A stretch of DNA of 64,000 nt from Candidatus Fervidifonticultor sextus (GTDB lineage Bacteria; Sysuimicrobiota; Sysuimicrobiia; Sysuimicrobiales; Humicultoraceae), in contig JAVKHQ010000007.1 in NCBI GenBank assembly GCA_031459875.1, forward strand, positions 1-64,000, given 5' to 3'. Below, one piece after another: positions 18,271-59,289 of this stretch; position 1 is the first letter of the stretch; each line of letters starts with the position of its first letter. Both the position numbers and the translations under genes were made by a program. The notes below the pieces were generated by a model. It was not told the DNA's origin. It ran no database searches and saw nothing but the letters and a program-made list of their open reading frames with translations.

Positions 18271-21660
<3,390 letters not shown>

Positions 21661-44189: not shown

Positions 44190-44449
44190 GGATTGCTTCC
44201 GTCGCCGAGGTCAAGGCCAAGTTGAGCGGCTACATCGAGGCGAGCAAGACGGGGCCCATCATCGTCACCAAGAACGGGAAACCCGTGGCCGTCCTGCTGT
44301 CGGTGCAAGACGAGGACGAGATAGAGCGATTGCTATTGGCCTACTCCCCCAGGTTGCAGCGCGTCCTGGCGATGGCGGAACAACAGATTCGAGCCGGGAA
44401 GGGGATCAAGCACGACGCGTTCTGGCATGAGTTTCCCGCAGAGGCATGA
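44186..44449 (+). CDS. Phd/YefM-family antitoxin
   Basis: SVAEVKAKLSGYI...GPIIVTKNGKPVAVL. Confidence 0.9.
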   Translation: MRIASVAEVKAKLSGYIEASKTGPIIVTKNGKPVAVLLSVQDEDEIERLLLAYSPRLQRVLAMAEQQIRAGKGIKHDAFWHEFPAEA

Positions 44450-44477
44450 GGACCTGCACGCACGCTATACTGACCGC

Positions 44478-46508
44478 ATGACCGATGCCACCGCGGCGCG
44501 TCCGGGTCGACCCTCCGCGGTCTCCCTCCACCCCGGCCTCGCTCCGGTGCTGGCCGAGATCGGCGAGGTGCCGCCCGGTCCGTTCGTCCCGGCCTCGTTC
44601 CAGCGGGACGCGCTGGCGGCCCTCGTCACCCACGACGTGCTGGTCATGGCGCCGACCGGCAGCGGGAAGACGTGGATCGCGCAGGAGGCGATCCGCGCCC
44701 GGGCCGCCGGGGCCGGCCAGACCTGGTACACGACACCGCTGAAGGCGCTGTCCAACCAGAAGTTCCGGCAGTTCCAGGGCCTGTTCGGCGAAGAGGCCGT
44801 CGGGCTGCTGACCGGCGAGCGCCGGATCAACCCCCGTGCGCCGATCATCGTCGGCACGACCGAGATCCTGCGCAACGTCCTCTATGGCGGCGCTGACGGG
44901 ATCGGGTTCATCGTGCTCGACGAGGCGCACTACCTGGGGGATGTGGAGCGCGGCACCGCGTGGGAAGAAGTCCTGCTGCTGGCCTCACCCAGCACGCGGC
45001 TGCTGCTGCTCTCGGCCTCGCTGCCCAACGCCGACGAACTGGCCGGCTGGCTGGAAGAGGTGCGCGGCCGGCGTCCCGTGGTCGTGCGCGAGGACCGGCG
45101 TCCCGTGCCGCTGCGCATCCTGCTGGCGGACGCGGCGGGCCGCCTCCTGCCGCCGGCCATGGCCGGAAGGCTGCGGCGCGAAGAGCGGCGCCGGACCTGG
45201 CTCCCTGAACTGCTCCGCCAGCTCGAGGCGGGCCATCTGCTGCCGGCGATCCTTTTCTTCCCCTCCCGGCGCGAGTGCGACGTTGCCGTGCGCGAACTCG
45301 CGCCGCTGCGCCAGGGCGGCGCGGAGGAGCGCGCGCGGGCCCTGGGCCGGTGGGAAGCCGAGTACCCGACGCTATTGGGCCATCCCTTCCGGCACACGTT
45401 GATCCAGGCGGGGATCGCGCCGCACCACGCCGGCCACCTGATGGCGTGGCGCCTGGCGGTGGAGGATCTGCTGGCCCGCGGCCTGATCCGTGCCGTCGCG
45501 GCGACGACGACGCTGGCCAGCGGCCTGGATGTGCCGGCGCGCACCGTGGTCCTGAGCACGCTGGTCAGGAACAGCCCCGAAGGGCCCGTGGCGCTGTCGG
45601 CCACTGAGTTCCAGCAGATGTCCGGCCGGGCCGGCCGCCGGGGACGCGACCGGGTCGGCGTGGTCGTCGTCCCCGCCTCCGAGCGCAGCGAGGCGCACCT
45701 GGGGTTGGGCCTGGCCGAGGCCGACCCCGAGCCGGTGACCTCGGCGTTTGCGCCGTCCTACACGCAGGTGCTCAACATGCTGGCGCGCCGCCGTCTCGAG
45801 GAGGCGGTCGCCGAACTCCATCGGTCCTTCGCCGCCTACCAGGGCCTGCTGGGCCGCCGGATGCGCCTGCCGCGCCACCTGCCCGAGGGCGCCGTCGCCG
45901 AGGCCGCCCACCGGGCCCGGGACGGCCTGACGGCGGCGTTCCTGATGCGCGCCGCGGTCCTCCAGGTCCTCGGGTATCTGGACGCCAGCGCCCGCCCGAC
46001 CGACGACGGCCGCTGGGCGATGCGCCTCCGCCATCCCCGGCTGCTGGTCCTGGCCGAACTGGTGCGCCGGCGGCAGGTGCCCGCGACCGTCCCCCGCCTG
46101 GCCGCAACGGCCGCGGCGCTCGGCACCGAGCGACCGCCCCGCGGAGGCGGGACGAAGGCGCGCCTGGCCGCGCTCTCGCACGTCGTAGAGGAGGTCGTGC
46201 GCCTGGAGCGGATGTTCGGGTTGGAACCCGACCCCGTCGCCGGGGAGTTCAAGGTCGAGTGGAACCGGCACCGCCACCGCGTGATGCCTTCTCCGGCCGA
46301 GCGCCGGGCCGAGGCGGTGGAGGCCTGGGCTCGGGGGGCGGAGTGGCTCCGCCTCGTCACCGCGGTCGAGTCGGAGGAAGGCGACCTGCAGCGGACGGTG
46401 CTTCAGGCGGCGGAGGTCCTCATGCAACTGGAGGGGTTGCCCTTCCCGTCGCTGCGGGCGCTGGCGCACGAGGCGCGGGAGGCGCTGCTGCGACCGCCGG
46501 TGGTGTAG
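44478..46508 (+). CDS. Ski2/HelY-like SF2 (DEAH) helicase
   Basis: APTGSGKT, TPLKALSNQK, DEAH, SAS, HHAG, QMSGRAGRRG, DSHCT-like tail (EEGDLQR); TATACT 6 nt before ATG. Confidence 0.9.
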   Translation: MTDATAARPGRPSAVSLHPGLAPVLAEIGEVPPGPFVPASFQRDALAALVTHDVLVMAPTGSGKTWIAQEAIRARAAGAGQTWYTTPLKALSNQKFRQFQGLFGEEAVGLLTGERRINPRAPIIVGTTEILRNVLYGGADGIGFIVLDEAHYLGDVERGTAWEEVLLLASPSTRLLLLSASLPNADELAGWLEEVRGRRPVVVREDRRPVPLRILLADAAGRLLPPAMAGRLRREERRRTWLPELLRQLEAGHLLPAILFFPSRRECDVAVRELAPLRQGGAEERARALGRWEAEYPTLLGHPFRHTLIQAGIAPHHAGHLMAWRLAVEDLLARGLIRAVAATTTLASGLDVPARTVVLSTLVRNSPEGPVALSATEFQQMSGRAGRRGRDRVGVVVVPASERSEAHLGLGLAEADPEPVTSAFAPSYTQVLNMLARRRLEEAVAELHRSFAAYQGLLGRRMRLPRHLPEGAVAEAAHRARDGLTAAFLMRAAVLQVLGYLDASARPTDDGRWAMRLRHPRLLVLAELVRRRQVPATVPRLAATAAALGTERPPRGGGTKARLAALSHVVEEVVRLERMFGLEPDPVAGEFKVEWNRHRHRVMPSPAERRAEAVEAWARGAEWLRLVTAVESEEGDLQRTVLQAAEVLMQLEGLPFPSLRALAHEAREALLRPPVV

Positions 46509-46522
46509 GCGGGCCTCTGGAC

Positions 46523-46735
46523 CTACGGTCTTCGGATGGATTCGAGGCCGACCCGGCGCGCTACGGACTCAAGCCGTGAGTCCCAACAAGCGAACAGCAC
46601 CGGGGCGGACAGGCGTTCCCTGTGAGAGTGAGCGCCGAGGCCAGATGGAGGGCATCGTATGCCCGGAGATGGTACTTCTCCGCAGCGTCCCCCGCAGTCA
46701 TGATCAGCGAGTCTGTCACGCGAACGTGAACGAGC
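46523..46735 (-). pseudogene. VapC/PIN toxin C-terminal remnant, frameshifted
   Basis: VTDSLIMTAGDAAEKYHLRAYDALHLASALTL, then a shifted frame VLFACWDSRLESVARRVGL; N-terminal half absent. Confidence 0.75.
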
Positions 46736-46967
46736 GCCCTCTGATCTTGACCGGTCTTCGCGCTCCCCTGGGTTTCCCGCCATTCCAGTGCGCGGTTCCA
46801 TCCTGCAGCATCGCCTCGAACCGCTCGTCGATCTCGCCTTCCGGAGCCGGCACCATGACCGCGATGGGCTCCCCGTGGGTGGTGACCACGATGCGCTCGC
46901 CCTCTTTGATGCGCCGCAGATAGTGGCTCAGACGTGCCTTGAGCTCCCTCACGCCGACAGTCGCCAT
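46716..46967 (-). CDS. Phd/YefM-family antitoxin
   Basis: MATVGVRELKARLSHYLRRIKEGERIVVTTHGEPIAVM; RBS GAGGAG. Confidence 0.88.
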   Translation of the reverse strand: MATVGVRELKARLSHYLRRIKEGERIVVTTHGEPIAVMVPAPEGEIDERFEAMLQDGTAHWNGGKPRGARRPVKIRGRSFTFA

Positions 46968-47037
46968 GAAACGGCTCCTCATCCTTTGTGACTAGATTTT
47001 ATTGAATTATGGACACATCCACATCAGCCGACCCCCA

Positions 47038-47961
47038 TCATCTCTGTTGCCGCACACCATCGGCCAACACCGCGTCCAGTCCGCGCCGCAGATCGCCCAG
47101 TTCACTCTCTGCCACCGGCCGCAGCGGCGCCCGCACGTGGGGCCCGATCACCCCGCGCAGCGCCAGCGCCGCCTTGATGTGGGGGACCGAGGCGCCGTTG
47201 TGCAGCATGCGGCACACCGCCGCGACCTGCCGGTACGCTTCCTTCACGTCAGGCCAGGCCCCGCGCGCCGCCGCCCGCCACAGCGCCACATACGGCTCCG
47301 GCACCGCGGCCGCCGGCCCGGAGACCGTGCCCGCCCACCCCATGGCGACCATGGCAGGGATGAGCAGGTCGGCGCCGACCAGGATGCGGAAGCCCGGACC
47401 TGCCGCCTCCGAGATCAGCACCACACCGTAGGGGTCCCCGGTGCTGTCCTTCATGCCGACCAAGTTCGGCCGCCCGAGCAGCGCGCGGACCACCGACGGG
47501 GTCAGGGGATTGCCCGTGGTCTGCGGGATGTTGTAGAGCAGCACCGGGTGATCGGGGACTGCGTCGGCCACCGCCTCGAAGTGGGCGATGAGCGCCTCCT
47601 CGGCGTGCCGGAAGTAGAACGGCGCCATGACCGCCAGCGCATCCACGCCCGCTCCGACGGCGGTTCGAGCCGCCGCGATCGTCCCCGCCGTCGTCATCCC
47701 GCCCACCTGCGCGATGACCGGGACCCGGCCGGCTGAGGCGGTCACCGCCGCGCGCAGCACGGTGACCCGCTCCTCCAGGTCCAGCAGTGGCCCCTCCCCT
47801 GTTGTCCCGCACGCGAAGATCCCGTCCACGCCCCGGTCCACCAGCCACCCGACCAGATCGCCCACGCCGCGCGCATCCACCTGGCCGTCTGCGTGCATCG
47901 GGGTCGGGAGGGCGATGATCACCCCCCGCAGACGCTCGACAACCTCACGCCGGATGCCCAT
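47038..47961 (-). CDS. DHDPS/NanA-family class I aldolase
   Basis: GTTGE, catalytic Tyr in LLYNIP, Schiff-base Lys in GMKDS. Confidence 0.9.
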   Translation of the reverse strand: MGIRREVVERLRGVIIALPTPMHADGQVDARGVGDLVGWLVDRGVDGIFACGTTGEGPLLDLEERVTVLRAAVTASAGRVPVIAQVGGMTTAGTIAAARTAVGAGVDALAVMAPFYFRHAEEALIAHFEAVADAVPDHPVLLYNIPQTTGNPLTPSVVRALLGRPNLVGMKDSTGDPYGVVLISEAAGPGFRILVGADLLIPAMVAMGWAGTVSGPAAAVPEPYVALWRAAARGAWPDVKEAYRQVAAVCRMLHNGASVPHIKAALALRGVIGPHVRAPLRPVAESELGDLRRGLDAVLADGVRQQR

Positions 47962-48144
47962 GGAGATTCAGCACCCTCCCGGCCGCCTGCGCGGCCCCGC
48001 TCACGCTCTCGCCGTACCCGCGGGTCCCGTGCCCTGGACGCTTCGACGCCTGCACCGCCTCCTCTTGCTCTGCGGGGTGGAGCCGGTCCTGCCCGGTATC
48101 CATCGCCGCCCTCCTGACGCTACAGTAGTTGTGGAGGCGCCTCC

Positions 48145-49119
48145 GTGAGCCTGCACGAACACCCGGACGCGCACCGCTCATGCGACGTGACCGCCGGCAC
48201 CCTGCCCAAAGGAATCGTCCCCGTCCTGCAGACGCCCTTCGCGCAGGACGGGAGCATCGACCTCGAGGGCCTGGAGCGGCTCACTGAGGACGCCGTCCGC
48301 GCCGGGGCGCGCGGCGTCCTGGCCCCGGCCGTGGCCAGCGAGGTGGACTACCTCGCGCGCGCGGAGCGGCGCAGGCTCGTCTCCATCATCGCCCGATCGC
48401 TGGCGGGGCGCCTGCCGTTCATCGTCGGCGCGTCGTCGAACCACGTCGAGGAGTGCGTGGAGGTCGCGCGGCTCGCCGAGCAGGTCGGCGCCGCAGCGTA
48501 CCTGGTTGCCGTGCCGGACGCGCTCTACCGCAGCCCTGAGGACATCCCGGGCTTCTTCCAGGCCATCGCATCGAAGGCCGGGCTCCCGCTGATCATCCAG
48601 GACCTGGAGTGGAGCGGCCCCGGCCTGCCCCTCGAGGTACTCCGCACCCTCAAGGCGGCGATTCCCACCCTGGCGGGGATCAAGATCGAGACGGTCCCGG
48701 CCGGGCCGAAGTACACCGCCGTGCGGGAGGCCTTTGGGGAGGCCTTCTACATTTGCGGCGGCTGGGCGGTCCCCCAGATGATCGAGGCGCTGGACCGCGG
48801 CGTGGACGCCATGATCCCCGAGGCGTCCATGGTGAGGGTCTATGCGGCGATCTACCGCCTCTACCATGCCGGAAATCGCGGGAAGGCGCAGGAGGTCTTC
48901 CGGGAACTGCTGCCGGTCCTGGCATTTGCCAACCAGGAGATCCGCCTCTCCATCGCCTTCTTCAAGGCGCTGCTCGTCCGGAAAGGGATCTTCCGGTACG
49001 AGACGATGCGCTGGCCGGGCTTCCGCTGGGATGCCTACCACCGTCGAATCGCCGACGAATTGATCGAGCACTACCTGGCGCTGGAGGAGCGCGTAGGCCG
49101 GCTCTCCCTACCGACCTAG
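48145..49119 (+). CDS. DHDPS-family protein, 2-keto-3-deoxy-pentonate dehydratase-like subgroup
   Basis: AVASE in place of GxxGE, IIQD in place of the Tyr, IKIET: the pattern of L-KDA-dehydratase-like enzymes. Confidence 0.8.
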   Translation: MSLHEHPDAHRSCDVTAGTLPKGIVPVLQTPFAQDGSIDLEGLERLTEDAVRAGARGVLAPAVASEVDYLARAERRRLVSIIARSLAGRLPFIVGASSNHVEECVEVARLAEQVGAAAYLVAVPDALYRSPEDIPGFFQAIASKAGLPLIIQDLEWSGPGLPLEVLRTLKAAIPTLAGIKIETVPAGPKYTAVREAFGEAFYICGGWAVPQMIEALDRGVDAMIPEASMVRVYAAIYRLYHAGNRGKAQEVFRELLPVLAFANQEIRLSIAFFKALLVRKGIFRYETMRWPGFRWDAYHRRIADELIEHYLALEERVGRLSLPT

Positions 49120-50385
49120 GCCGGGCAGGAACATCACCAGCTGGGGCACCAGCGTAATGAGGAAGAGACACCCGACCAGGACGACGATGTAGGGGACGAG
49201 TTCCTTCAGGATCACTGCCATCGGCAACTTCGTCAGCCCGCTCAGCAGGAACAGCAGCATCCCGAAGGGCGGGGTGAGCAGCCCGATCATCACGTTGAGC
49301 ACAAAGACCACCCCGAAGTGGACCAGGTCGATGCCCAGCGCCTGAACGATGGGGATCACGATGGGCAGGAAGATGAGCATGATGGCCAGCGTCTCCATGA
49401 ACATGCCCAGGATCAGGAAAAGCACGTTCAGGATCAGCAGCATCACCACCGGATTCCGGGTGATCTCCAGGAAGAACGCCGCGATGGCCTGGGGGATCTG
49501 CTCGCGGGCCAAAATCCATCCGAACACCGAGGCCGTGGTCACGATGAACATGATCATGGCCGTGTTCTCGACCACGCGCAGGGCCAGGCGGGGGATCTCG
49601 CGGGGCGGGATCTCGCGGTAGGCGACCGTTCCCAGGGCCAGGGCGTACAGCACCGCGACGGCCGCCGCCTCGGTCGGCGTGAAGAACCCGCTGTAGATGC
49701 CCCCCAGGAGGATGACCGGGGCAAGCAGCGGCGGGACGGCCTTCCAGAACGCTGCCACGAACTCCCGGAACGTGACCCGCGCCTCGCGGGGGAAGCCCCG
49801 CCGGACGGCCTGGACGTAGACCAGGCCCATCATCGCCAGCCCCATGAGGACCCCCGGGATCACGCCGCCCAGGAAGAGAGCCCCCACCGAGACCTGGGCC
49901 ATGGACCCGTAGATGACCATGGGGATGGACGGCGGGATGATCGGCCCGATGGTGGAGGTCGCGGCCGACAGCGCCGCGGCGAACGGGCGGGGGTAGCCGG
50001 CGCCTTCCATCGCCTCGACCTCCATCATGCCCACGCCTGCGGCGTCGGCGATGGCCGAACCCGACATGCCGGCGAAGATCATGCTGTTCACGACGTTCAC
50101 GTGCGCCAGGCCGCCCGGCACGTGGCCGACCACGGCATGGGCGAACTGGAAGATGCGCCGTGTCGTGCCGGTGGTGTTCATCACCTCGGCAGCCAGGATG
50201 AAGAACGGCACCGCCAGCAGCAGGAAGGAGTCGATCCCGAAGATCATCCGCTGGGCAACGATGGTGATGTCGATGGTCCCCACCAGCACCATGTAGATCG
50301 CGCACCCCAGGCCCAACGCGAAGGCCACCGGGAGTCCCGTCGCGAACCCGACCGCGACGACGCCCAGCAGGATCCACTTCTCCAC
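49108..50385 (-). CDS. dctM: TRAP transporter large permease
   Basis: LLAVPFFILA, GMSGSAIADAA, IIPPSIP, FTPTEAA, GLLTPPFG. Confidence 0.95.
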   Translation of the reverse strand: MEKWILLGVVAVGFATGLPVAFALGLGCAIYMVLVGTIDITIVAQRMIFGIDSFLLLAVPFFILAAEVMNTTGTTRRIFQFAHAVVGHVPGGLAHVNVVNSMIFAGMSGSAIADAAGVGMMEVEAMEGAGYPRPFAAALSAATSTIGPIIPPSIPMVIYGSMAQVSVGALFLGGVIPGVLMGLAMMGLVYVQAVRRGFPREARVTFREFVAAFWKAVPPLLAPVILLGGIYSGFFTPTEAAAVAVLYALALGTVAYREIPPREIPRLALRVVENTAMIMFIVTTASVFGWILAREQIPQAIAAFFLEITRNPVVMLLILNVLFLILGMFMETLAIMLIFLPIVIPIVQALGIDLVHFGVVFVLNVMIGLLTPPFGMLLFLLSGLTKLPMAVILKELVPYIVVLVGCLFLITLVPQLVMFLPGLGR

Positions 50386-50888
50386 TAGCGAGCCCTCAGC
50401 GAGCGGATCAGATCTGCGGCCTGCTGGAGGTGGTGGATCAGGAGGAGCACGCAGGCGACCGGGACGGCGACGACCAGGTACCCCGAGGGCACCTCCATGG
50501 CGGGTGAGGGAATCTTCCGATAGAACGCGAAGAACGCCAGGCCGCTTTGGAGCCCGTACAGCAGGAAGAAGAGGATGGCCACCTCGTGGACCAGCAGCAG
50601 GACCGTCCTGGCCCGCCCGGGCAGCCTGTTGGGGACGAAATCCATGCGGATCTGCGCGCGCCGCCGGCTCACCAGCGCCGCCCCCAGGAAGACCATCCAG
50701 ATGTACAGGTACCGGGCCAGTTCATCCGCCCAGGTGGGCGGCCGCGTCAGGACGTCGCGCATGAAGATCTGGTAGATGACGACGACGAACATGAGCAGGA
50801 GGAGCAGGGAGGGCACCGTCTCCTCCACGAGGTGGACGATGCCCTCCCACAGCCGGACCCGGGTGGACCGTGCGGCCTGCGGCGTCAC
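50385..50888 (-). CDS. dctQ: TRAP transporter small permease
   Basis: WADELARYLYIWMVFLGA...QIRMD. Confidence 0.92.
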   Translation of the reverse strand: MTPQAARSTRVRLWEGIVHLVEETVPSLLLLLMFVVVIYQIFMRDVLTRPPTWADELARYLYIWMVFLGAALVSRRRAQIRMDFVPNRLPGRARTVLLLVHEVAILFFLLYGLQSGLAFFAFYRKIPSPAMEVPSGYLVVAVPVACVLLLIHHLQQAADLIRSLRAR

Positions 50889-50894
50889 CGACGT

Positions 50895-51890
50895 CTAGCG
50901 CGCCGACGCGATGGCCTCATACACGCCCTGACCCCAGACCTTCCCGAACTTGTCCGGCAGGCAGCGCCGGGCCTGGGCGCGGAAGGCGTCCATGTCGGGG
51001 GTGATCACCTCCATGCCCGCGGCCCTGAACTTGCCCAGCAGTTCGGCCTCATCCTTCAGCACCAGCGCATTGGAGACCTTACCCCCCTCCTCGAAGGCCT
51101 GCACCACGATGCGCTGGCCCTCGGCCCCCAGCGCCTCCCACGTCTTCTCGTGGATGATGGGGATGATCGGCCCGACCTGGTGGCCGGTCAGCACCAGGTA
51201 CTTGGCGACCTCGTAGAATTTGAAAGCGTTGATGTTGGTGAACGGGTTCTCCTGGCCGTCCACCACGCCGGTCTTCAGAGCCAGGTAGACCTCACCGATG
51301 CCCATCGGGACCGGGTTGCCGCCCATGCACCGGAGGTTCTCGATGTAGATCGGGTTGTTGGGCACCCGGATCTTCAACCGGGCCAGCTCCGCCGGCGTCC
51401 TGAAGGGCTTGTTGGTGGTGAAGTGCCGGGTCCCCAGGTACCAGACGTCCACCACCCGGATGGTGATGGCGCTGGGCAACTGCTTGAACAGTTCTTGCCC
51501 GATGCGCCCCTTCATGACCCTGAACATGTGGTCGACATCGACGAACAGGTAGGCGGCCTCCAGCACGCCGACCGTGGCCAGATATGGCGCCATCCAGGAC
51601 GGGTTGGAGAACCACATGTCCTGGGTGCCGCGCATGGTGTTGATCATCTGCTCGGCCTGGCTGCCGAGCTGATCGCCGGGAAACACCTGCAGCTGGATGC
51701 GGCCCCCGGACCGCTGGGCGATGATGTCTGCGGCCTTCCTGGCGCCCACATCCACCGGATGGCCCACCGGGTTGTTGGTGCCGAAACGGATCACGATGCG
51801 TTGCTGGGCGGCCAGCGGCTGGATCCCGACCAGCAGCGCCAGCACGGCCACGACCGTCACCGTCAGCCCACGTCGTATTACCTGCTCCAT
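50895..51890 (-). CDS. dctP: TRAP substrate-binding protein
   Basis: LKIRVP (conserved carboxylate-binding Arg), EVYLALKTGVVDGQENP. Confidence 0.95.
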   Translation of the reverse strand: MEQVIRRGLTVTVVAVLALLVGIQPLAAQQRIVIRFGTNNPVGHPVDVGARKAADIIAQRSGGRIQLQVFPGDQLGSQAEQMINTMRGTQDMWFSNPSWMAPYLATVGVLEAAYLFVDVDHMFRVMKGRIGQELFKQLPSAITIRVVDVWYLGTRHFTTNKPFRTPAELARLKIRVPNNPIYIENLRCMGGNPVPMGIGEVYLALKTGVVDGQENPFTNINAFKFYEVAKYLVLTGHQVGPIIPIIHEKTWEALGAEGQRIVVQAFEEGGKVSNALVLKDEAELLGKFRAAGMEVITPDMDAFRAQARRCLPDKFGKVWGQGVYEAIASAR

Positions 51891-51904
51891 GCTCCTCTCC
51901 TCCT

Positions 51905-53656
51905 TTACTCGGGTGCGCCAGCTCCCGTCGTCTGTGTCCCCCTGAGGCCTGCCATAAGCTCGTGACGGCTTCCACCCCCCTGTCCGGTTGGGGATCCTTG
52001 CCGCGCTCCCACCCGCAGGCGGCGCAGGCGCCTCATCACTTCACTGTGGCCCTCGCCGAAGTATTGCGCCAGCGCCAGGTAGTCGCGGTAGAGGGTCTCG
52101 TAGATCTGCTGCGCATCCGGTCGCGGGCGGTAGCGGATGCGGTCGGCGCTGCCCATGCGCCGGATGGCCTCGACCATGGTGTCGTAGCCTCCTGCACGCT
52201 CGCCCGCAGCCGCGGCCGCATAGATCGCCGCTCCCACCGCCGAGGCATGCTGGACTCGCGCTACCAGCACCTCGCGGCCGATGATGTCGGCGGTCAACTG
52301 CAACAGCAGCGGGTTGCGCTCGGCCAGCCCGCCGCAGGCGTGGACCTCGTGCACCGGGACGCCGCCGGCCTCGAACGTCTCGATGACCCGACGCGTGCCG
52401 AACGCGGTGGACTCCAGCAGCGCGCGGTAGATCTCGTGGGGTTCAGTGGTGACCGTCAGCCCCACCAGGAGGCCCGTCAGGTCGGCGTCCACCAGCGGCG
52501 TGCGGCAGCCGTTCCACCAGTCCAGCGCCAGTACTCCCGCCTCGCCGGGGGCCAGTCGGGCGGCGTCGGCTTCGAGGCGGTCGTAGACCGCAGCCTCGCC
52601 CCCATCCCCCCCTGCGTAGCGCGCGGGCACTGCGGTTCGCACGAACCACTGGAAGATGTCGCCGACCGAGGCCTGGCCGGCCTCGTACCCGAACAGCCCC
52701 GGCAGGATGCCGTCTTCGACCACGCCCGAGATGCCGCGCACGATCCGGCGCGCGGGGTCAACGAGGAGGTGGCAGGTCGAGGTCCCCATGATCGCCACGA
52801 GCCGGCCTGGCTCGCAGACGCCCACGGCGGGCACGGCGGCGTGCGCGTCGATGACCGCCACGGCGACCGGCGTGCCCTCGCGCAGGCCGGTCCGCTGCGC
52901 CCATGTGGCCGACAGGCCGCCGGCGCACGCCGCCACCGGGTGCGGGGGCGGGCCGAGTTTTTCCAGGAACGACGGCAGGTCGGGATCCAGCGACGCCCAG
53001 AACGCCGCCGGCGGATAGCCGGCGTCCTTCTGCCAGTGCGCCTTGTACCCCGCCTGACAGGCGCTGCGCACCTCCTCGCCGACCAGTTGCCAGACGATCC
53101 AGTCGCCGCCCTCGATCCAGCGGGCGGCGGCAGCGGCCACCTGCGGCGCCTCGGCCAGTACCTGCCAGGCCTTGGCCCAGGACCACTCCGACGAGGTGCG
53201 CCCTCCGTACCACTGGAGGAACCCCGCATCCGGCCGGCCTGCGGTGGCGTTGATCCGATCCGCGTACGGCTGCGCGGCGTGGTGCTTCCACAACTTGGGC
53301 CAGGCGTTGGGGTCCGTGGCGAACTCGGGCAACAGGCACAGCGGCGCGCCCTGGGCCGTGGCGGGCATCACGGTGCACGACGTAAAGTCCACGCCGATCC
53401 CGATAATGGCCCGCTGCGGCGCCCCCGCGGTCAGGGTGCGCAGCAGGGTCTCCAGCGCCTCGATCCAGTCGCCGGGGTGCTGCAGCGCCCAGTCTGGCGG
53501 CAGACGCTCCTCGGTGTCGGGCAGCGCCCGATCGATGACACCGTGGGGATACGAGTAGGTCGCCGTGCCGGCGATGCGTCCATCGGCGGTGTCCACCAGC
53601 ACCGCGCGCGCCGACTCGGTGCCGAAGTCTACCCCGATCGTGTAGCGCGTCGCCAC
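51905..53656 (-). CDS. araB: Ribulokinase (FGGY family)
   Basis: IGVDFGTESAR, WALQHP, LWKHHAAQ, IDAH, IMGTSTCH, YEAGQ, LDWWNG.RTP. Confidence 0.9.
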   Translation of the reverse strand: MATRYTIGVDFGTESARAVLVDTADGRIAGTATYSYPHGVIDRALPDTEERLPPDWALQHPGDWIEALETLLRTLTAGAPQRAIIGIGVDFTSCTVMPATAQGAPLCLLPEFATDPNAWPKLWKHHAAQPYADRINATAGRPDAGFLQWYGGRTSSEWSWAKAWQVLAEAPQVAAAAARWIEGGDWIVWQLVGEEVRSACQAGYKAHWQKDAGYPPAAFWASLDPDLPSFLEKLGPPPHPVAACAGGLSATWAQRTGLREGTPVAVAVIDAHAAVPAVGVCEPGRLVAIMGTSTCHLLVDPARRIVRGISGVVEDGILPGLFGYEAGQASVGDIFQWFVRTAVPARYAGGDGGEAAVYDRLEADAARLAPGEAGVLALDWWNGCRTPLVDADLTGLLVGLTVTTEPHEIYRALLESTAFGTRRVIETFEAGGVPVHEVHACGGLAERNPLLLQLTADIIGREVLVARVQHASAVGAAIYAAAAAGERAGGYDTMVEAIRRMGSADRIRYRPRPDAQQIYETLYRDYLALAQYFGEGHSEVMRRLRRLRVGARQGSPTGQGGGSRHELMAGLRGTQTTGAGAPE

Positions 53657-53663
53657 GAGGCCC

Positions 53664-55079
53664 TCACGCGAAGACCCGGGGCTCGATCCCGGTCATCCTG
53701 CAGAACCACACCAGGTCGTCCACGTAGTTGCCGTAGACGCCGTGGATGTGGTTGGAGTCGTACTCGCCGAGGAACTCTTCGGCCGACACCTTGAACCTGG
53801 CGAAGGCGTGCGGCCATTCGGGTGTGGTGGCCCTGGCCCGGGCGGCCGCCTCCTCCGGGACGAACTGCAGGAACTCGCCCGGCACGATGGCCATCCAGTA
53901 CCGGCCGTTGCGCCGCGCCAGCCGCGCCAGGGTCACCTCGCCGGGGGCCGCAATGTGCATCACGGAGGCGCCACCGGCCGGGAAGTAGATGATCGCCGGG
54001 TAGAGGTGCACGTGGGGGAGGTTGACCGCCGGGTCAAAGGACCGGCCGGCGAAGTAGGTGGCGTGCTGGCCGGAGTTGACCAGGTCCCACACATCGTCGG
54101 CGGCGTCGTAGTGGCGGACGTCGGCGAAGAGCACCGGAGTCCCGGCGAGGTGCTTGAAGATCTCCATCGTGAGCGCGCCGTCGCTGTCGGCCTCGGTGGC
54201 GCACACGATGGGGTCGTGGGGACCTTCCCAGTCGTAGGGGTCGTTGAGGAACGCCTCGGCCACGTCCATGGTGGCGAAGTGGTTGGTCATCTCCGGCTGG
54301 CCCTTGATGCCGCAGAAGTCCAGCCGCCACTCGTCGATGATCTCGCGCACCGCGTGGTAGGACTTGATCTGGCGGCGCAGGAGGTCGGGGGTGAGCTTGC
54401 GCCCGTCGTAGTGGATCGTGGCGCCGTGCCGCTGGAGCCAGGCGATGCCGGCGTCCGCGCGACTGTCGGGAATGGCCTCCGCGCGCCGGATGATCTCGAA
54501 CTGGTCGATGTGCTCGATGTCGACCCCGAACTCCCGCCGCCACTGGTCCAGCGCCGGCACGGCGGTGTACATGCCCATGGATCGGCCGCCGATGACCCCG
54601 TACACCTCGCCTCGCAGCCGGTTCTTCGCCACCGCCGGCCGCAGGAAGCGCAGCACCCGCTCGAAGACCCCCTCGTCGTCAATGTCGCCCGAGACGCGGC
54701 CGCAGAAGGCGCCCACCTGGTCGAGGCTGCCGGCGGCGGCCAGCATCGCCACCAGCCCCGGATACTGGGGGTTCACGTTGCTGAACAGGAGGATCGGGCC
54801 GGGGACGAACTGCGCGGCGATGGCCGAGTAGTGGGGCCACGCCCAGATGGCGTAGTTGAAGACCGTGGCCTCGACACCCTGGGCGGCCAGGTACCGGCCC
54901 TCGCTGGCCGCCAGATCGGTGGTCCACACGATCTCGCGCCCGGTCACCACCTCCCACCCGACGGTCCGCAGCCGCGCGGCCAGGCGGTCCTGGAACTGCC
55001 GGGTCATCGGGAGCAGTTCGGCGTGCACGTGGGGCCGGCCGTCGGAGAACGTCAGGATGCCGACCTTGGGGCTCCGCAT
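53664..55079 (-). CDS. L-fucose/D-arabinose isomerase-family protein
   Basis: 471 aa; GGRSMGM, EAFLNDPYDW, CATEADSDGA, DVRH, NSG, EWPHAF, SNHIHGVYG match FucI motifs. Confidence 0.85.
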   Translation of the reverse strand: MRSPKVGILTFSDGRPHVHAELLPMTRQFQDRLAARLRTVGWEVVTGREIVWTTDLAASEGRYLAAQGVEATVFNYAIWAWPHYSAIAAQFVPGPILLFSNVNPQYPGLVAMLAAAGSLDQVGAFCGRVSGDIDDEGVFERVLRFLRPAVAKNRLRGEVYGVIGGRSMGMYTAVPALDQWRREFGVDIEHIDQFEIIRRAEAIPDSRADAGIAWLQRHGATIHYDGRKLTPDLLRRQIKSYHAVREIIDEWRLDFCGIKGQPEMTNHFATMDVAEAFLNDPYDWEGPHDPIVCATEADSDGALTMEIFKHLAGTPVLFADVRHYDAADDVWDLVNSGQHATYFAGRSFDPAVNLPHVHLYPAIIYFPAGGASVMHIAAPGEVTLARLARRNGRYWMAIVPGEFLQFVPEEAAARARATTPEWPHAFARFKVSAEEFLGEYDSNHIHGVYGNYVDDLVWFCRMTGIEPRVFA

Positions 55080-55120
55080 GAGCGACCTCCGCTTCCCCGC
55101 GGCGCAGTGCCGGCGGGTAG

Positions 55121-55133
55121 GAGAACGTTATCA
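55121..55133. promoter_or_regulatory. LacI-type operator, copy 1
   Basis: GAGAACGTTATCA quasi-palindrome centred on AACGTT; an identical copy is at 55244. Confidence 0.75.
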
Positions 55134-55243
55134 GAGTCCTGGAGGAGCATTCGCGGCCAGCAGGGGGATTCCTGCCTCGCCCGCCGGACCCGGGCTCCGG
55201 CGGCCGGGACGGAAGGAACCGCTCCTGAGCAGGTGGAAGTCAA

Positions 55244-55256
55244 GAGAACGTTATCA
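55244..55256. promoter_or_regulatory. LacI-type operator, copy 2 (autoregulatory)
   Basis: Identical GAGAACGTTATCA ending 1 nt before the regulator ATG. Confidence 0.75.
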
Positions 55257-55257
55257 C

Positions 55258-56286
55258 ATGCCTACCATCCGCGACGTCGCCCGCCGCGCCGGGGTCTCGG
55301 TGGCGGCCGCCGCCCGCGCCCTCGGCGGCTACGGTTACACCAGTGCAGCCACGCGGGAAAAGGTGCTGCGTGCAGCCCAAGCCCTCGACTACCACCCCAA
55401 CGCCATCGCCCGCAGCATGATCAAGGGACGCACGCAGACCCTGGGCGTGATCGTCTCCGACAACGCCAACCCGTTCTTCGCCTCGGTGGTGCGCGGCATC
55501 GAGGACGCGGTCCTGGGCCAGGGCTACGCCATCGTCCTCTGCAACGCCGACGAGGATCCGGCCAAGGAGGCGATCTACCTCCGGACAGTCCGCCAGAAGC
55601 GCGTCGACGGCCTGGTCATCTCGCCGTCGGGCGGGTCGGCGGCGGCCCTGCGGGGTCTGATGGACAGCGGGACCTCCATCGTCCAGGTGGACCGTCGCCT
55701 GCCCCGGCTGGCAGCGGATGCCGTGCTCACCGACAACCGGGCAGGCGTGCGCGCGGCCGTCGAGCACCTGATCCGTCTCGGCCACCGTCGCATCGGTATC
55801 CTCAGCGGCCCGCGGCGGCTCTACACCGGCCGCGAGCGCCTGGAAGGCTATCTGGCTACCATGCGGGATGCCGGGCTCCCGGTGGCGGACGGGTGGGTCC
55901 AGGAGGGCAACTTCAAGGAAGCGAGCGGCTACGAACTGGTCGGCCGCTTCCTGGGACTTCGCCGCCGGCCCACGGCCATCTTCATCGCCAACAACCTGAT
56001 GACCATCGGCGCGCTGCTGGGCCTCAAAGAGGCCGGCGTGCGGATTCCGGAGGAGATGGCCGTGGTGGGCTTCGACGACATGGACTGGGCGCCGATCCTC
56101 ACCCCACCGCTGACGGCCGTGGCCCAGCCCGGGTATCACCTGGGGGCGACGGCGGGCCGGCTCCTGCTGGAACGACTGGCCCAATCCTACCGGGGCAGGC
56201 CCCGCACCGTCGTCTTCCAGCCCCGACTGGTCGTCCGGGAATCCTGCGGCGCGCCCCTGCGCCAGGGCCCCGGGGTCAGGCGCTGA
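55258..56286 (+). CDS. LacI-family transcriptional regulator
   Basis: MPTIRDVARRAGVS HTH, YHPNAIAR hinge, VVGFDD. Confidence 0.95.
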   Translation: MPTIRDVARRAGVSVAAAARALGGYGYTSAATREKVLRAAQALDYHPNAIARSMIKGRTQTLGVIVSDNANPFFASVVRGIEDAVLGQGYAIVLCNADEDPAKEAIYLRTVRQKRVDGLVISPSGGSAAALRGLMDSGTSIVQVDRRLPRLAADAVLTDNRAGVRAAVEHLIRLGHRRIGILSGPRRLYTGRERLEGYLATMRDAGLPVADGWVQEGNFKEASGYELVGRFLGLRRRPTAIFIANNLMTIGALLGLKEAGVRIPEEMAVVGFDDMDWAPILTPPLTAVAQPGYHLGATAGRLLLERLAQSYRGRPRTVVFQPRLVVRESCGAPLRQGPGVRR

Positions 56287-56873: not shown

Positions 56874-57299
56874 ATGATCTCCAGACGGGCACAGGCGTGC
56901 CGCCGGTCAGGCGGCCAGCGGGGGTTTACCCTGATCGAGGTGATGATCGGCATGCTCCTGCTGGCATCCATCGTGGTCATGTTGGCCCAGGGCTACATGG
57001 CCGCGCTCAGCCGGGCCGGGGAGACCGGCGACCACACCATGGCGGCGGCGTGGGCGCAGGCCATGGTGGACTACCTCCGCAACCAGGGCTATGGGGTCAG
57101 CGGTTCCTGGAGCGAGACGCCGGCGGCCTGCGCCGCGCCCAAACCGTGCCTCCCCCCCGTGTTCAGCCGCGCCGACATCGTCGTCAGCAACACCGGGATC
57201 CCGTCCCTCAAGCAGATCGACATCACCCTCTACCGGATGGGGTCGGGGTCGCCCTTCATGGCGCTCTCCACGTACGCCGCGGACCTGAGGTTTCCGTGA
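56874..57299 (+). CDS. Minor pilin, PilV/GspI-like
   Basis: QRG|FTLIEVMIG. Confidence 0.82.
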   Translation: MISRRAQACRRSGGQRGFTLIEVMIGMLLLASIVVMLAQGYMAALSRAGETGDHTMAAAWAQAMVDYLRNQGYGVSGSWSETPAACAAPKPCLPPVFSRADIVVSNTGIPSLKQIDITLYRMGSGSPFMALSTYAADLRFP

Positions 57300-57988
57300 T
57301 GCGGCGGACCATGGCAGGCCGGACCGGGCGCGGCGAGCGGGGGCTCACCCTTGTCGAAGTCATCGCCGCCATGGCGATCGGCTCATTGGTGCTCTCGACG
57401 ATCTACCTGGCGCTGGGCACGGCGATCAAGGCCCGCCTCCTGGTGTGGAGCCAGGTGCACAACCAGCAGCACGGCCGCCTGGTCATCCAGTGGATGGCCG
57501 ACCGCCTGCGCCAGGCCGGCTACGCCGTCAGCCCGGCCAGCCCGCTGCCGCGCTGCCAGGACGCGCTGGTCGCCGAGGATCCGGCGCTGCGCCCCACCGC
57601 CTCTCAGATCTACTTCAACACGGACCTGGACGGCGCAGGGGCCGGCGCCCCGACGCAGACCATCGGGTTCCGCGTGGGCAGGGAGAGCGCGGGTGGGACC
57701 ATGGTCAATGTGGTCGAGGAGTCGGTGGCCGACTGCACAAGCGGCGCCCCCTCACGGGTTTCCAGCGTGACCGACCCAACCTCCGTGGCCATCGCCTCGC
57801 TGACGTTTGACTACTACGATGCCAGCGGGACCCCGGTCACCGACCTCGCGACGCCAGACAGCATTCGGACGATCCGCATGGTCCGCATTACCCTGGTCGA
57901 GCAGGCCTCGGCCGGCTCGCTGGGTCCCAGGGGGCAGACATGGAGCGTACTCGTCTCGCTACGGAATCCGGACCCGCGCAACCCGTGA
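57299..57988 (+). CDS. Minor pilin, PilW/GspJ-like
   Basis: ERG|LTLVEV, DRLRQAGY, IRMVRITL, VSLRN. Confidence 0.82.
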   Translation: MRRTMAGRTGRGERGLTLVEVIAAMAIGSLVLSTIYLALGTAIKARLLVWSQVHNQQHGRLVIQWMADRLRQAGYAVSPASPLPRCQDALVAEDPALRPTASQIYFNTDLDGAGAGAPTQTIGFRVGRESAGGTMVNVVEESVADCTSGAPSRVSSVTDPTSVAIASLTFDYYDASGTPVTDLATPDSIRTIRMVRITLVEQASAGSLGPRGQTWSVLVSLRNPDPRNP

Positions 57989-59289
57989 GCCGGGGGCGTC
58001 CGGCCCCCCGCGGCGAACGGGGGAACGTCCTGTTGATCATCCTGGTGTTCCTGGTGGCAGGCGGGGTCCTGGCCATGGGCCTCCTCAACAGCCTGCTGGG
58101 AGAGATCCAGGGGGGCCTGTCCTACCGCCATGCGGTCCAGGCCCTGTCGGTCGCCGAGGCCGGCGTGCACTACGCGGCCGCCAGGGTCAATGAGGCAGGC
58201 GGCGCCGCGTATGCCGGCGAGACCGACCGCTGGGTCTCGCACCCCCTCCAGGGGAACGTCGGCCTGTTCGATGTCACGGTGCGGTGCTCCGACGGCACGG
58301 TCCCGGGGAATCCCAGCCCCTGTGCAGGCGCTCCCCAACCCAACGTGCGCGTCGTCACCTCGACTGGGTACGTGCCGAGCAAGGCGATCCCGCTGGGGCG
58401 CCGCACCGTGGTCACCACCATCCGGCAGCAGATCCTCACCTCTTTGCAGTACGCGGTCTGCGGGGAGGATGGGGTGACCCTCAACCAGAGCACCAGCACC
58501 TACGGCGACGTGGGCAGCAACCGCAACATCACCCTGCTGGGCCCGCCCCAGACGCCTGGATCGCTGGCGCGCATCTACGCCTTTGCCGGCCAGCGAGGCG
58601 ACGCCACCGCCGGCGGCGCGGTGGCCTGCTCGGCGTCGTGCGGGCCGTCCTACTACCAGGTCCAGGGGACCGCGACGAGCTACGGGACCCCGGGCCGCCA
58701 GGTCTGCCCGGTGCTGCCGTCCTTCGCGTGCACCCCGGGCACACGAGACGAGATCCGCGGCGCCGGGGCGAGCCTGGTGATCAGCGCGGCGAACGGCAAC
58801 ACGGCGCTGCGCAACGTCAGCCTGGGGAGGAACTCCACCCTGACCTTCCAGACCACCGGCCCCAACGAGACCCTCGTCGTCCAGATGAACAGCCTGACGG
58901 TCGGGCAGAACAGCCGCGTGCGCGTGACCGGAGGCGGCAAGGTGGTCCTGCACCTGGCCGACCGCTCGACGATCAACCAGGGCACGCTCTTCGGCGTCGA
59001 CGCCACCGATGTCGGCATCGAGCCCGGCCGCTTCCTGATCCAGAGCTGCGCGACGGACGGGGGGGCCAACGAGTTCGCCCTGGAGTTCCACCAGACCGGC
59101 GGCATCTACGCCATCCTGTTCGCGCCGAACGGGACGGTGCAGCTGGACCAGGCGAACCTCTCCCGCGGGGCGATCTCTTCGCGTTACGTGCAGTTTGATC
59201 AAGGTACCGACTTCCGGTACGACACCACCGGCCTGGCCATCAGCGCCGGCCCCTACAACACCATCGCGGCCTGGCGGGAGCAGCCGTAG
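57985..59289 (+). CDS. Large minor pilin, PilX/GspK-like, with a beta-rich C-terminal domain
   Basis: ERG|NVLLI (no E5), ALSVAEAGV, Cys pairs, LFAPNG, terminal WRE. Confidence 0.78.
   Translation: MSRGRPAPRGERGNVLLIILVFLVAGGVLAMGLLNSLLGEIQGGLSYRHAVQALSVAEAGVHYAAARVNEAGGAAYAGETDRWVSHPLQGNVGLFDVTVRCSDGTVPGNPSPCAGAPQPNVRVVTSTGYVPSKAIPLGRRTVVTTIRQQILTSLQYAVCGEDGVTLNQSTSTYGDVGSNRNITLLGPPQTPGSLARIYAFAGQRGDATAGGAVACSASCGPSYYQVQGTATSYGTPGRQVCPVLPSFACTPGTRDEIRGAGASLVISAANGNTALRNVSLGRNSTLTFQTTGPNETLVVQMNSLTVGQNSRVRVTGGGKVVLHLADRSTINQGTLFGVDATDVGIEPGRFLIQSCATDGGANEFALEFHQTGGIYAILFAPNGTVQLDQANLSRGAISSRYVQFDQGTDFRYDTTGLAISAGPYNTIAAWREQP

Follow-up and report, generated by a model that had tools for sequence, protein, structure and literature searches.

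A TRAP transporter, FucI-like isomerase and ribulokinase locus of Candidatus Fervidifonticultor sextus that may serve catabolism of a scavenged 3-deoxy-2-ulosonic acid, possibly Kdo

Results

Gene content and organization of the locus

The window analysed here is a stretch of 64,000 nucleotides from Candidatus Fervidifonticultor sextus (contig JAVKHQ010000007.1), and this report concerns a putative sugar-acid catabolic locus at positions 47038-56286. Hidden Markov model (HMM) scans with Pfam and with the equivalog cut-offs of NCBIfam/TIGR assigned eight genes to this region, the G+C content of which is about 70%: a LacI-family repressor, a FucI-like aldose-ketose isomerase, an FGGY-family ribulokinase, the three components of a tripartite ATP-independent periplasmic (TRAP) transporter, and two proteins of the dihydrodipicolinate synthase (DHDPS)/NanA family, which we call ald1 and ald2. 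We put at roughly 0.5 the probability that the locus directs repressor-controlled catabolism of a scavenged 3-deoxy-2-ulosonic acid, most likely Kdo (3-deoxy-D-manno-octulosonate). The source genome (G000) is a metagenome-assembled genome (MAG) of 3.05 Mb that is 96% complete. Among public genomes it is nearest to 'Candidatus Fervidifonticultor' MAGs from hot springs, in the CSP1-3/Sysuimicrobiota lineage, which some records label Armatimonadota, and the stretch is also present in four DNA runs from one hot-spring study.

The lacI gene (55259-56286, plus strand) encodes a protein of 342 aa that combines an HTH_LacI domain (PF00356) with the periplasmic-binding-protein fold (Peripla_BP) of this repressor family. 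Its start was placed at the ATG at 55259, where the helix-turn-helix begins; the longest open reading frame (ORF) starts at 54856. The repressor is RbsR/PurR-like, at about 244 bits, and scores under the equivalog cut-offs. Between lacI and the divergent isomerase gene lie two identical copies of the 13-mer GAGAACGTTATCA, the first at 55121-55133, 42 nt upstream of the isomerase start codon, and the second at 55244-55256, ending 2 nt before the lacI ATG. The 13-mer is an imperfect palindrome around AACGTT, centred on CG. These two are the only exact copies in the whole genome, and a genome-wide search allowing one mismatch added a single unrelated site, on contig C39. Similar half-palindromes are found upstream of the isomerase gene in relatives.

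Five minus-strand genes face the repressor. They encode the isomerase (53664-55079; 471 aa; domains Fucose_iso_N1, N2 and C, PF07881, PF07882 and PF02952), the ribulokinase AraB (51905-53656; 583 aa), the TRAP solute-binding protein (SBP) DctP (50895-51890; TIGR00787, 210 bits against a cut-off of 175), the small permease DctQ (50385-50888; PF04290, 110 bits) and the large permease DctM (49108-50385; PF06808, 407 bits; TIGR00786, 446 bits against 268). The spacers in this run, calculated from the coordinates, are 7, 14, 6 and -1 nt, and from such tight packing co-transcription of the five genes is the natural inference. A preliminary description, made from the letters and their reading frames alone, had a LacI regulator with two identical operators facing a minus-strand run of isomerase, ribulokinase and dctPQM, and both the HMM scores and the exact 13-mers bear this out. 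Beyond the run lies ald2 (48145-49119, plus strand; 324 aa; PF00701, 101 bits), which that description had overlooked. It is convergent with dctM, overlapping it by 12 nt, and divergent from ald1 (47038-47961, minus strand; 307 aa; PF00701, 215 bits).

Isomerase loci in other phyla

To place the locus in context we compared 80 loci around relatives of the isomerase from about ten phyla, in which ORFs were chosen by cross-locus support and clustered, and representatives of the clusters with more than one member were annotated. Counts are given over 79 loci, since L073 lost its isomerase ORF in ORF selection; linkage means a position within 9 kb of the isomerase, and kinship among the loci inflates the counts. 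On this basis an FGGY kinase is linked to the isomerase in 37 loci, a DHDPS-family gene in 25, a TRAP system in 13, a tripartite tricarboxylate transporter (TTT; TctABC) in 3, one or other of these acid transporters in 14, and a BNR_2 protein in 10. The linked transporters are of the TRAP/TTT acid type (14 loci) or are CUT1-type ATP-binding cassette (ABC) importers accompanied by the sialidase-fold BNR_2 protein (10 loci). A DHDPS gene is present in 11 of the 14 loci with an acid transporter, L009 and L034 being added by tblastn, and in 7 of the 10 loci with BNR_2.

The gene order varies between lineages. Writing ISO for the isomerase, the NC10 loci (L022, L027, L030, L032) read LacI-FGGY-ISO-DHDPS-DctPQM, and those of Bipolaricaulota and Marinimicrobia (L047, L050, L060, L068) read LacI-DHDPS-SBP-permease-permease-BNR2-ISO, followed by FGGY. 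In Mesoaciditoga the order is ISO-FGGY-DHDPS-ABC, continued by BNR2-PfkB-LacI in L038 and by PfkB-LacI in L065, with the contig ending in L044; PfkB kinases are found in 5 of the 79 loci. Pseudothermotoga and another Thermotogota MAG (L072, L079) carry the isomerase with DctPQM and two DHDPS genes, and two Sysuimicrobiota relatives (L011, L017) have ISO-FGGY-TctCBA-DHDPS. Among metagenomic loci, L088, which holds the closest DctP among the matches listed (54% identity), encodes DHDPS, a TIGR01315 kinase, a FucI_C-like protein, DctP, BNR_2 and DHDPS; L092 has DHDPS-DctPQM-IclR adjoining ISO-FGGY; and L100 and L130 have a canonical 599-aa FucI beside DHDPS and TRAP genes. Among the annotated genes of the compact clusters there is no aldose dehydrogenase, lactonase or sugar-acid dehydratase, and the DHDPS enzyme must therefore receive a 2-keto-3-deoxy acid ready-made.

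The most direct comparison is with the congener Ca. Fervidifonticultor secundus (L012). Relative to positions 44427-56286 of the window it has the same flanks, namely lacI-isomerase-araB and a DEAD/DSHCT helicase gene, and between them it carries SBP-permease-permease-BNR2-DHDPS where the window has dctPQM-ald2-ald1. The strongest reason to count ald1 and/or ald2 with the operon in function, separate units though they are, is this cassette swap.

Some relatives carry additional genes. In L008, the closest relative (isomerase 96% identical), two genes at 13079-14242 and 18454-19110 have no counterpart in the window: a 387-aa URO-D-like protein is encoded between araB and dctP (Pfam URO-D, E ~3e-4, in the L015 and L059 homologs), and a B12-binding corrinoid protein between ald2 and ald1. 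Of the 79 loci, 6 have a URO-D-like gene in the vicinity of the isomerase and 4 a B12-binding gene, and such genes are present in L130 as well (the loci include L015, L059, L058, L070 and L079). They point to a corrinoid methyltransferase reaction in certain versions of the system, possibly one that demethylates an O-methylated sugar. Also, genes for pyruvate:ferredoxin oxidoreductase subunits adjoin the isomerase/kinase cluster in L047, L051 and L059, from Bipolaricaulota and Caldisericota MAGs; these may suit a pathway that releases pyruvate, or may be coincidence.

The isomerase

The isomerase falls far below the FucI equivalog level (NF008220, 87.5 of 775 bits; TIGR01089, 81.5 of 850 bits) and is shorter, at 471 against ~590 aa. 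FucI structures in the PDB match it with E 1e-19 at best, over parts of the protein. E296 and D320, which are invariant across 14 family members, fall in an ungapped alignment opposite E337 and D361 of E. coli FucI (1fui), the catalytic Glu and Asp of that enzyme. The NCBI family name is 'L-fucose/L-arabinose isomerase family protein', and this branch of the FucI family numbers 2876 proteins at E <= 0.001 among the 8000 candidates scored. Its neighbours include DUF2961/GH172 proteins in 7 of 79 loci, and FucU mutarotase and alpha-L-fucosidase in L031, L053 and L083. In the excerpted text of PMC10115798, GH172 enzymes are described as exo-alpha-D-arabinofuranosidases and a putative fucose isomerase as the CAZyme of highest abundance in D. 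gadei on D-arabinan. Because the catalytic Glu/Asp pair is conserved and the genomic neighbours are of these kinds, the data point to a substrate of D-arabinose/L-fucose-type configuration.

A sulfoquinovose isomerase (SftI) was considered as an identity for this protein and rejected, with 34 bits against a cut-off of 700 and no sulfo-pathway genes. In L021 (1902-4764), where the isomerase is 83% identical, the genes that follow it on the other strand encode a class II aldolase and a rhamnulokinase-like FGGY kinase. These are the genes expected of a phosphorylative pathway of L-fucose type that would share the isomerase. L021 also has AraB and an rbs-type ABC system.

The ribulokinase and the absence of an epimerase

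AraB passes both of the cut-offs that define L-ribulokinase equivalogs (TIGR01234, 644 against 583 bits; NF003154, 657 against 428 bits). Elsewhere, the FGGY kinases beside the isomerase are non-orthologous, being of AraB, TIGR01315 or XylB-like type. AraB equivalogs adjoin the isomerase in this lineage and in L054, the kinases of NC10, L077 and L081 score best as TIGR01315 or ribulokinase, that of L088 reaches 601 bits with TIGR01315 against a cut-off of 409, and XylB-like kinases are found elsewhere. Because the partner kinases interchange among pentulose kinases, their variety argues that the ketose is a pentulose (C5), and the predicted acid hence a C8 compound. D-ribulose would fit both the AraB and the TIGR01315 group: E. 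coli AraB is promiscuous and also accepts D-ribulose, and the TIGR01315 group includes the D-ribulokinase of the Klebsiella ribitol operon.

The araBAD pathway for L-arabinose includes AraA and AraD, and neither was found in the source genome. The best TIGR00760 (AraD) match in this 96%-complete genome scores 36.6 bits against a cut-off of 389, and AraA_N (PF02610) has no match; of the two PF00596 proteins in the genome, one is a generic class II aldolase and the other is MtnB-like. In a survey of 94 genomes of the phylum, including G000, in which proteins were counted as AraD-like at E <= 1e-20, the isomerase is present in 47 genomes and an AraD-like protein in 8; both are found in 3 of the 47 isomerase-positive genomes (G047, G067, G090), on different contigs. 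The window's own family has the isomerase in 22 of 34 genomes and an AraD-like protein in none (0/34). These tallies include G016, a genome flagged as unpublished that is isomerase-positive and AraD-negative, without which they become 46/93, 8/93, 3/46, 21/33 and 0/33.

At the isomerase loci themselves, tblastn with three AraD-like proteins against the 80 loci, all from other genomes, found a class II aldolase adjoining the isomerase in one locus, L021, where it scores equally as epimerase, ribulose-1-phosphate aldolase and fuculose-1-phosphate aldolase, in each case below cut-off. The cluster in the window holds no class II aldolase or epimerase, in agreement with the earlier statement that it has neither an AraD-type epimerase nor a FucA-type aldolase, and the expectation that the gene set is conserved without araD is matched by the 1/80 loci and 3/47 genomes.

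These data bear on the simplest alternative, an ordinary L-arabinose operon in which the FucI-like protein replaces AraA, AraB forms L-ribulose-5-phosphate, an unrecognised epimerase acts from elsewhere, and the TRAP and DHDPS genes are unrelated neighbours. The AraB score, the NCBI name of the isomerase family and the class II aldolase/epimerase-like gene of L021 speak for it. The L021 gene, however, could equally be a ribulose-1-phosphate or fuculose-1-phosphate aldolase and stands beside a rhamnulokinase-like kinase; moreover, the TRAP genes lie inside the operon, and the linkage of DHDPS genes with acid transporters recurs across phyla. Because AraA and AraD are absent and AraD-like genes are rare in company with the isomerase, a route through L-ribulose-5-phosphate is unlikely, and the explanation as a whole seems to us very improbable.

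The TRAP transporter

DctP, DctQ and DctM are encoded by adjacent genes, as in other TRAP systems, and DctP keeps the carboxylate-binding arginine. In an alignment with SiaP of V. cholerae (7a5q), R155, R175 and N215 occupy the positions of R125, R145 and N185, of which R145 is R147 in H. influenzae numbering. The conserved carboxylate arginine noted in DctP at the outset is thereby confirmed as part of a SiaP-type R/R/N triad. The two proteins are 30-32% identical (E 5e-47), and SBPs for other acids tie with SiaP in fold score: in a fold search with a DctP model (predicted local distance difference test, pLDDT, 91), SiaP was among the top matches with Z about 40. Sialic-acid binders are among DctP's closest solved relatives, SiaP also binds KDN according to the title of 2v4c, and the matches include 4ovt, an SBP reported to have L-fuconate bound. 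A scan of metagenomes, which is not a reciprocal ortholog test, found distant relatives only among the matches listed, with identities of at most 54%.

The DHDPS-family proteins

In ald1 the PF00701 domain spans residues 11-295 of 307, which places the protein in the DHDPS/N-acetylneuraminate lyase (NAL) superfamily. Its motifs GTTGE, YNIPQTTG and GMKDSTG align with those of the genome's own DapA and make up the catalytic set, including the Schiff-base Lys; the positions of GTTGE, the YN-P Tyr and the Lys are those of E. coli DapA and NanA. YNIPQTTG has a Thr where the genome's DapA has the Arg (YN-P-x-R-T) that binds aspartate semialdehyde. The scores of ald1 are under all NCBIfam equivalog cut-offs (dapA TIGR00674, 186 of 206 bits; nanA TIGR00683, 112 of 382, and NF003164, 135 of 281), and it matches YagE keto-deoxy-acid aldolases about as well as DapA (E 7e-36). 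A role as the housekeeping dapA is ruled out by the lack of the Arg together with a better dapA elsewhere in the genome (C1:50822-51679, 334 bits), one of 5 DHDPS-family genes in the 3.05 Mb. Orthologs of ald1 occur in 6 of the 94 genomes of the phylum, all of them isomerase-positive, and in G004 and G030 they lie ~8 kb from the isomerase. We regard ald1 as the best candidate for a ulosonate (Kdo) aldolase.

The ald2 protein is more divergent. Its motifs are AVASE, QDLE and IKIE, the first two replacing GTTGE and the motif with the YN-P Tyr, so that it is not a canonical DHDPS-family aldolase; the Schiff-base Lys is kept in IKIE. Its closest solved relatives are L-2-keto-3-deoxyarabonate (L-KDA) dehydratases (PDB 7c0c, E 2.3e-19; 3fkk, E 1.2e-18). 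In a tree it groups with dctM-adjacent genes of L008, L015, L027 and L138, with support of 100/99.

Among the other isomerase-linked DHDPS proteins, one clade scores above the dapA cut-off, at 239-256 against 206 bits, with YNIPLFTG or YNIPLFSG and without the DapA Arg (L012:9016-10224, L059:7789-8835, L072:14273-15187, L079:11429-12349). Automatic annotation would therefore mis-name these proteins DapA.

Sialidase-fold proteins

The BNR_2 proteins are about 310-350 aa long and occur in catabolic clusters with an ABC importer; the source genome has no BNR_2 gene. A model of the family (pLDDT 92) was searched against 48,161 PDB representatives, and the top 21 matches are all GH33 sialidases or a KDNase (Z 30.8-38.2; root mean square deviation 2.0-2.7 over ~300 residues). 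The next fold, a GH93 arabinanase, follows at Z 28.0, and the family can be assigned to the GH33 fold. R197, R274, R323, E301 and Y304 are invariant in the family. In KdhAB/KdoH of Francisella, Helicobacter and Legionella, the only Kdo hydrolase known, Kdo glycosides are cleaved by a catalytic subunit that the excerpted text of PMC3573668 describes as 'sialidase-like'. The BNR_2 proteins resemble it to the extent that they have a sialidase fold. They differ in that KdhAB is a two-component inner-membrane enzyme that trims lipopolysaccharide (LPS), whereas BNR_2 is found in catabolic ABC clusters and is absent from the window's genome.

Kinship to sialidases raises the question of whether the scheme could operate on another acid, such as KDN, a sialic-acid relative, Dha or O-methylated Kdo, with the lyase releasing an aldehyde other than D-arabinose to the isomerase and kinase. 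A KDNase among the BNR_2 matches, the sialic-acid binders near DctP with the KDN complex of 2v4c, the PfkB kinases in 5 loci, and the URO-D-like (6/79) and B12-binding (4/79) genes, which hint at methylated substrates in relatives, would all suit such a substrate. Set against this, the partner kinases are of pentulose type (an AraB equivalog here, TIGR01315 in L088, and others nearest ribulokinase or xylulokinase); by established stereochemistry the FucI-type configuration is that of D-arabinose and L-fucose, not of D-mannose or ManNAc; and the locus contains no ROK kinase, NanE or deacetylase. We consider a substrate of this kind improbable.

Neighbouring genes

Beyond lacI, an ORF at 56897-57988 (plus strand) has a prepilin-type N-terminal methylation motif from residue 145 of the longest ORF, so that its start is probably later, and a DUF7305 ORF follows at 57940-59289 (plus strand). 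L008 likewise has the prepilin-motif and DUF7305 genes beside the locus; both probably encode type IV pilin-like or pseudopilin proteins and are unrelated to the finding reported here. An Asp/Glu/hydantoin racemase gene lies at 59426-60199 (plus strand), and in the syntenic L008, L009 and L018 the genes after it encode an AsnC regulator and an ABC system of SBP_bac_5/Opp type. This racemase/Opp module resembles one for peptide or D-amino-acid uptake and adjoins the sugar locus.

Discussion

In the pathway that we propose, DctPQM would import the free acid, for which DctP has the carboxylate-binding triad. A Schiff-base lyase of the DHDPS/NanA family, with ald1 the leading candidate, would cleave Kdo to pyruvate and D-arabinose; the FucI-like isomerase, to judge from its catalytic pair and genomic partners, would convert D-arabinose to D-ribulose; and the AraB-type ribulokinase, acting on the D-substrate, would form D-ribulose-5-phosphate, which could enter the pentose-phosphate pathway with no 4-epimerase. 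LacI would bind both operators between its own gene and the isomerase and presumably be released by the sugar or an intermediate. Isomerase and kinase would constitute a conserved D-arabinose core served by feeder cassettes that vary by genome: TRAP, ald2 and ald1 here, an ABC importer, sialidase-like hydrolase and DHDPS in the congener, and a GH172 D-arabinofuranosidase elsewhere. We name Kdo because it is the common natural acid that fits a carboxylate importer, a pyruvate lyase, a D-arabinose-type isomerase and a pentulose kinase in a locus with no epimerase; the identity of the acid remains our inference from this fit. The preliminary description had proposed the same succession of steps, an acid split by a lyase and the aldose then isomerised and phosphorylated with no epimerase, and the comparison across phyla gives it context, but the aldolase lies outside the operon and ald2 finds no place in the scheme.

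Besides the AraB score and the class II aldolase of L021, a number of observations weigh against the Kdo pathway. Because ald2 stands on the opposite strand between dctM and ald1, ald1 is predicted to be a separate transcription unit, a neighbour and not a member of the operon, and no copy of the LacI operator was found in the 183-nt region between ald1 and ald2 (47962-48144). The sequence gives no sign that ald1 belongs to the visible LacI regulon, and of the canonical NanA/DHDPS-type aldolase said to follow dctPQM, the motif set stands but the placement does not. The ald1 orthologs are present in just 6 of the 47 isomerase-positive genomes of the phylum, and therefore most isomerase-kinase pairs work without ald1; this sparse distribution fits a D-arabinose core with variable feeders and weakens the case for ald1 in particular. 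In the tree, the DHDPS genes linked to the isomerase form at least 6 clades in addition to the ald2 clade, with an unresolved backbone, and they include no single 'Kdo aldolase' orthogroup. Because all TRAP SBPs tie as fold matches to DctP (Z 37-40), neither its sequence nor its fold reveals the ligand.

The remaining difficulties concern ald2, which resembles a keto-deoxy-pentonate dehydratase and which the Kdo scheme leaves unexplained. In L133 an ald2-like gene is accompanied by genes for an aldo-keto reductase, an Amidohydro_2 protein and a proline-racemase-family protein, and this set, with the likeness of ald2 itself, hints at chemistry of a keto-deoxy-pentonate or hydroxyproline type. 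In G044 (locus L175, C33:24000-40943) a DctP that is 87% identical (tblastn) is encoded in the order DHDPS, DctPQM and an ald2-like gene (68% identical to ald2), followed by FMN-dependent dehydrogenase fragments and a 638-aa thiamine pyrophosphate (TPP) enzyme, with an HpcH/HpaI aldolase upstream; no isomerase or kinase was found near this DctP, nor an isomerase anywhere in that 86%-complete genome. In G044 the same acid, once imported, may be processed by another route, and part of the TRAP-DHDPS module may serve another keto-deoxy-acid chemistry.

Carried further, these observations would divide the locus into two parallel modules. The isomerase and kinase would serve a neutral sugar of the D-arabinose/L-fucose type with an uptake route of its own, and the TRAP transporter, ald2 and ald1 would serve a related acid, for example L-fuconate, D-arabinonate or 2-keto-3-deoxy-pentonate, with ald1 as a keto-deoxy-aldonate aldolase and ald2 as a keto-deoxy-pentonate dehydratase, much as in the non-phosphorylative L-fucose/D-arabinose and Weimberg/Dahms routes. 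Such a division would account for L-KDA dehydratases as the best solved relatives of ald2, for the similarity of ald1 to YagE as well as DapA (E 7e-36), for the TRAP, DHDPS and ald2-like genes of G044 without an isomerase, and for the aldo-keto reductase and the lactonase-like Amidohydro_2 gene of L133. It is also favoured by a GD_AH dehydratase and a glucose-dehydrogenase-like gene beside ISO-AraB in L054, by the IclR regulators that flank DHDPS and TRAP genes in L092, L100 and L130, an arrangement similar to that of the fucose locus of C. jejuni, and by the L-fuconate SBP 4ovt among the matches to DctP. However, neither the window locus nor the compact clusters of NC10, Bipolaricaulota and Mesoaciditoga contain an aldonate dehydratase, aldose dehydrogenase, lactonase or alpha-ketoglutarate semialdehyde (KGSA) dehydrogenase, and an imported aldonate could therefore not reach the DHDPS enzyme. 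The division also leaves unexplained the sialidase-fold protein in 10 loci and in L088, and the TRAP genes translationally packed behind isomerase and kinase under one operator. We judge this division unlikely, though less so than the other alternatives.

The reading of the locus as a variant of the nan-type ulosonate cluster is plausible, is backed by the cross-phylum context, and is unproven. Nan clusters (SiaPQM TRAP or SAT ABC importer, sialidase, NanA, and NanK/NanE) follow the same logic, in which an acid importer supplies a lyase of the DHDPS/NanA family and then a kinase, and the likeness extends to the GH33-fold hydrolase in relatives of this locus and to the SiaP carboxylate triad in DctP. 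They differ in that the eight genes include neither NanK (ROK) nor NanE, and the aldose would be handled by an isomerase of FucI-like type and a pentulose kinase of the FGGY family; ald1 falls short of the NanA equivalog cut-offs, DctP has the modest identity to SiaP given above, and the presumed substrate is the C8 acid Kdo rather than a C9 sialic acid. The second half of the pathway has a precedent in E. coli B, which catabolizes D-arabinose with FucI and a D-ribulokinase to D-ribulose-5-phosphate. There, too, a FucI-fold isomerase and an FGGY ribulokinase act with no epimerase, but the isomerase of the present locus is short (471 aa), its kinase is AraB-type, and its pentose would be generated within the cell from an acid taken up by the importer.

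Other systems are more remote. The yiaK-S operon of E. coli combines the YiaMNO TRAP transporter with the FGGY kinase LyxK, and its route proceeds by decarboxylation of 3-keto-L-gulonate-6-phosphate and by epimerases that include an AraD paralog. The window shares with it a TRAP importer for an acid sugar and an FGGY pentulose kinase in one operon, with dctM and dctQ as weak matches to YiaN and YiaM, whereas the decarboxylation and epimerase genes, including the AraD paralog, are absent. L-2-keto-3-deoxyarabonate dehydratases (7c0c, 3fkk) belong with ald2 to the DHDPS/NAL superfamily and share its Schiff-base Lys, but the similarity is remote, and the arabinose dehydrogenase, lactonase, arabinonate dehydratase and KGSA dehydrogenase of the non-phosphorylative L-arabinose route are not found here. 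The reaction proposed for ald1, from Kdo to pyruvate and D-arabinose, is that of Kdo aldolase, which is known as an enzyme activity only; the excerpted text of PMC12199768 cites it from enzymology of 1966 and 1990 and names no gene.

If the Kdo pathway is correct for the wider set of loci, these would represent the first genetically defined Kdo catabolic pathway, in about ten mostly uncultured phyla, with one or more genes for Kdo aldolase, an orphan activity (EC 4.1.2.23), with Kdo hydrolases of sialidase fold in the cytoplasm, with importers of TRAP, TTT or ABC type for Kdo or Kdo-glycosides, and with exchangeable feeders for a conserved core of short FucI-like D-arabinose isomerase and pentulose kinases. 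We regard this broader proposal as tentative, its chances as a whole being a little under even. A phrase search of the accessible literature for Kdo catabolism, degradation, utilisation and lyase found no paper, and the main text of the paper describing Sysuimicrobiota (CSP1-3) has no mention of arabinose, fucose, TRAP, isomerase, sugar or lipopolysaccharide. With regard to Kdo biosynthesis, the genome yields a 59-bit partial match to KDO8P synthase at a contig end (G000:C7:5-295) and CTP_transf_3 matches of 21-25 bits. The organism may therefore not be a Kdo maker, in which case Kdo would be scavenged, but this evidence is too weak for a conclusion.

Conclusions

Kdo is made by nearly all LPS-bearing bacteria and is also a constituent of the plant polysaccharide rhamnogalacturonan II (RG-II). 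The locus offers a testable gene set comprising a binding protein, two members of lyase families, an isomerase, a kinase and a repressor whose operator is defined. Through it, sequences could be assigned to an orphan EC number, and a large branch of the FucI family that lacks an assignment could be given a function. The pathway could also explain why sialidase-fold proteins are found in organisms that never meet sialic acid, and the natural exchange of a TRAP cassette for an ABC importer with a hydrolase is useful for inferring substrates. If the proposal is true, a universal LPS sugar would be harvested widely as a source of carbon, perhaps most of all in hot springs, where the ketosidic bond of Kdo, being heat-labile, would be expected to free the sugar spontaneously.

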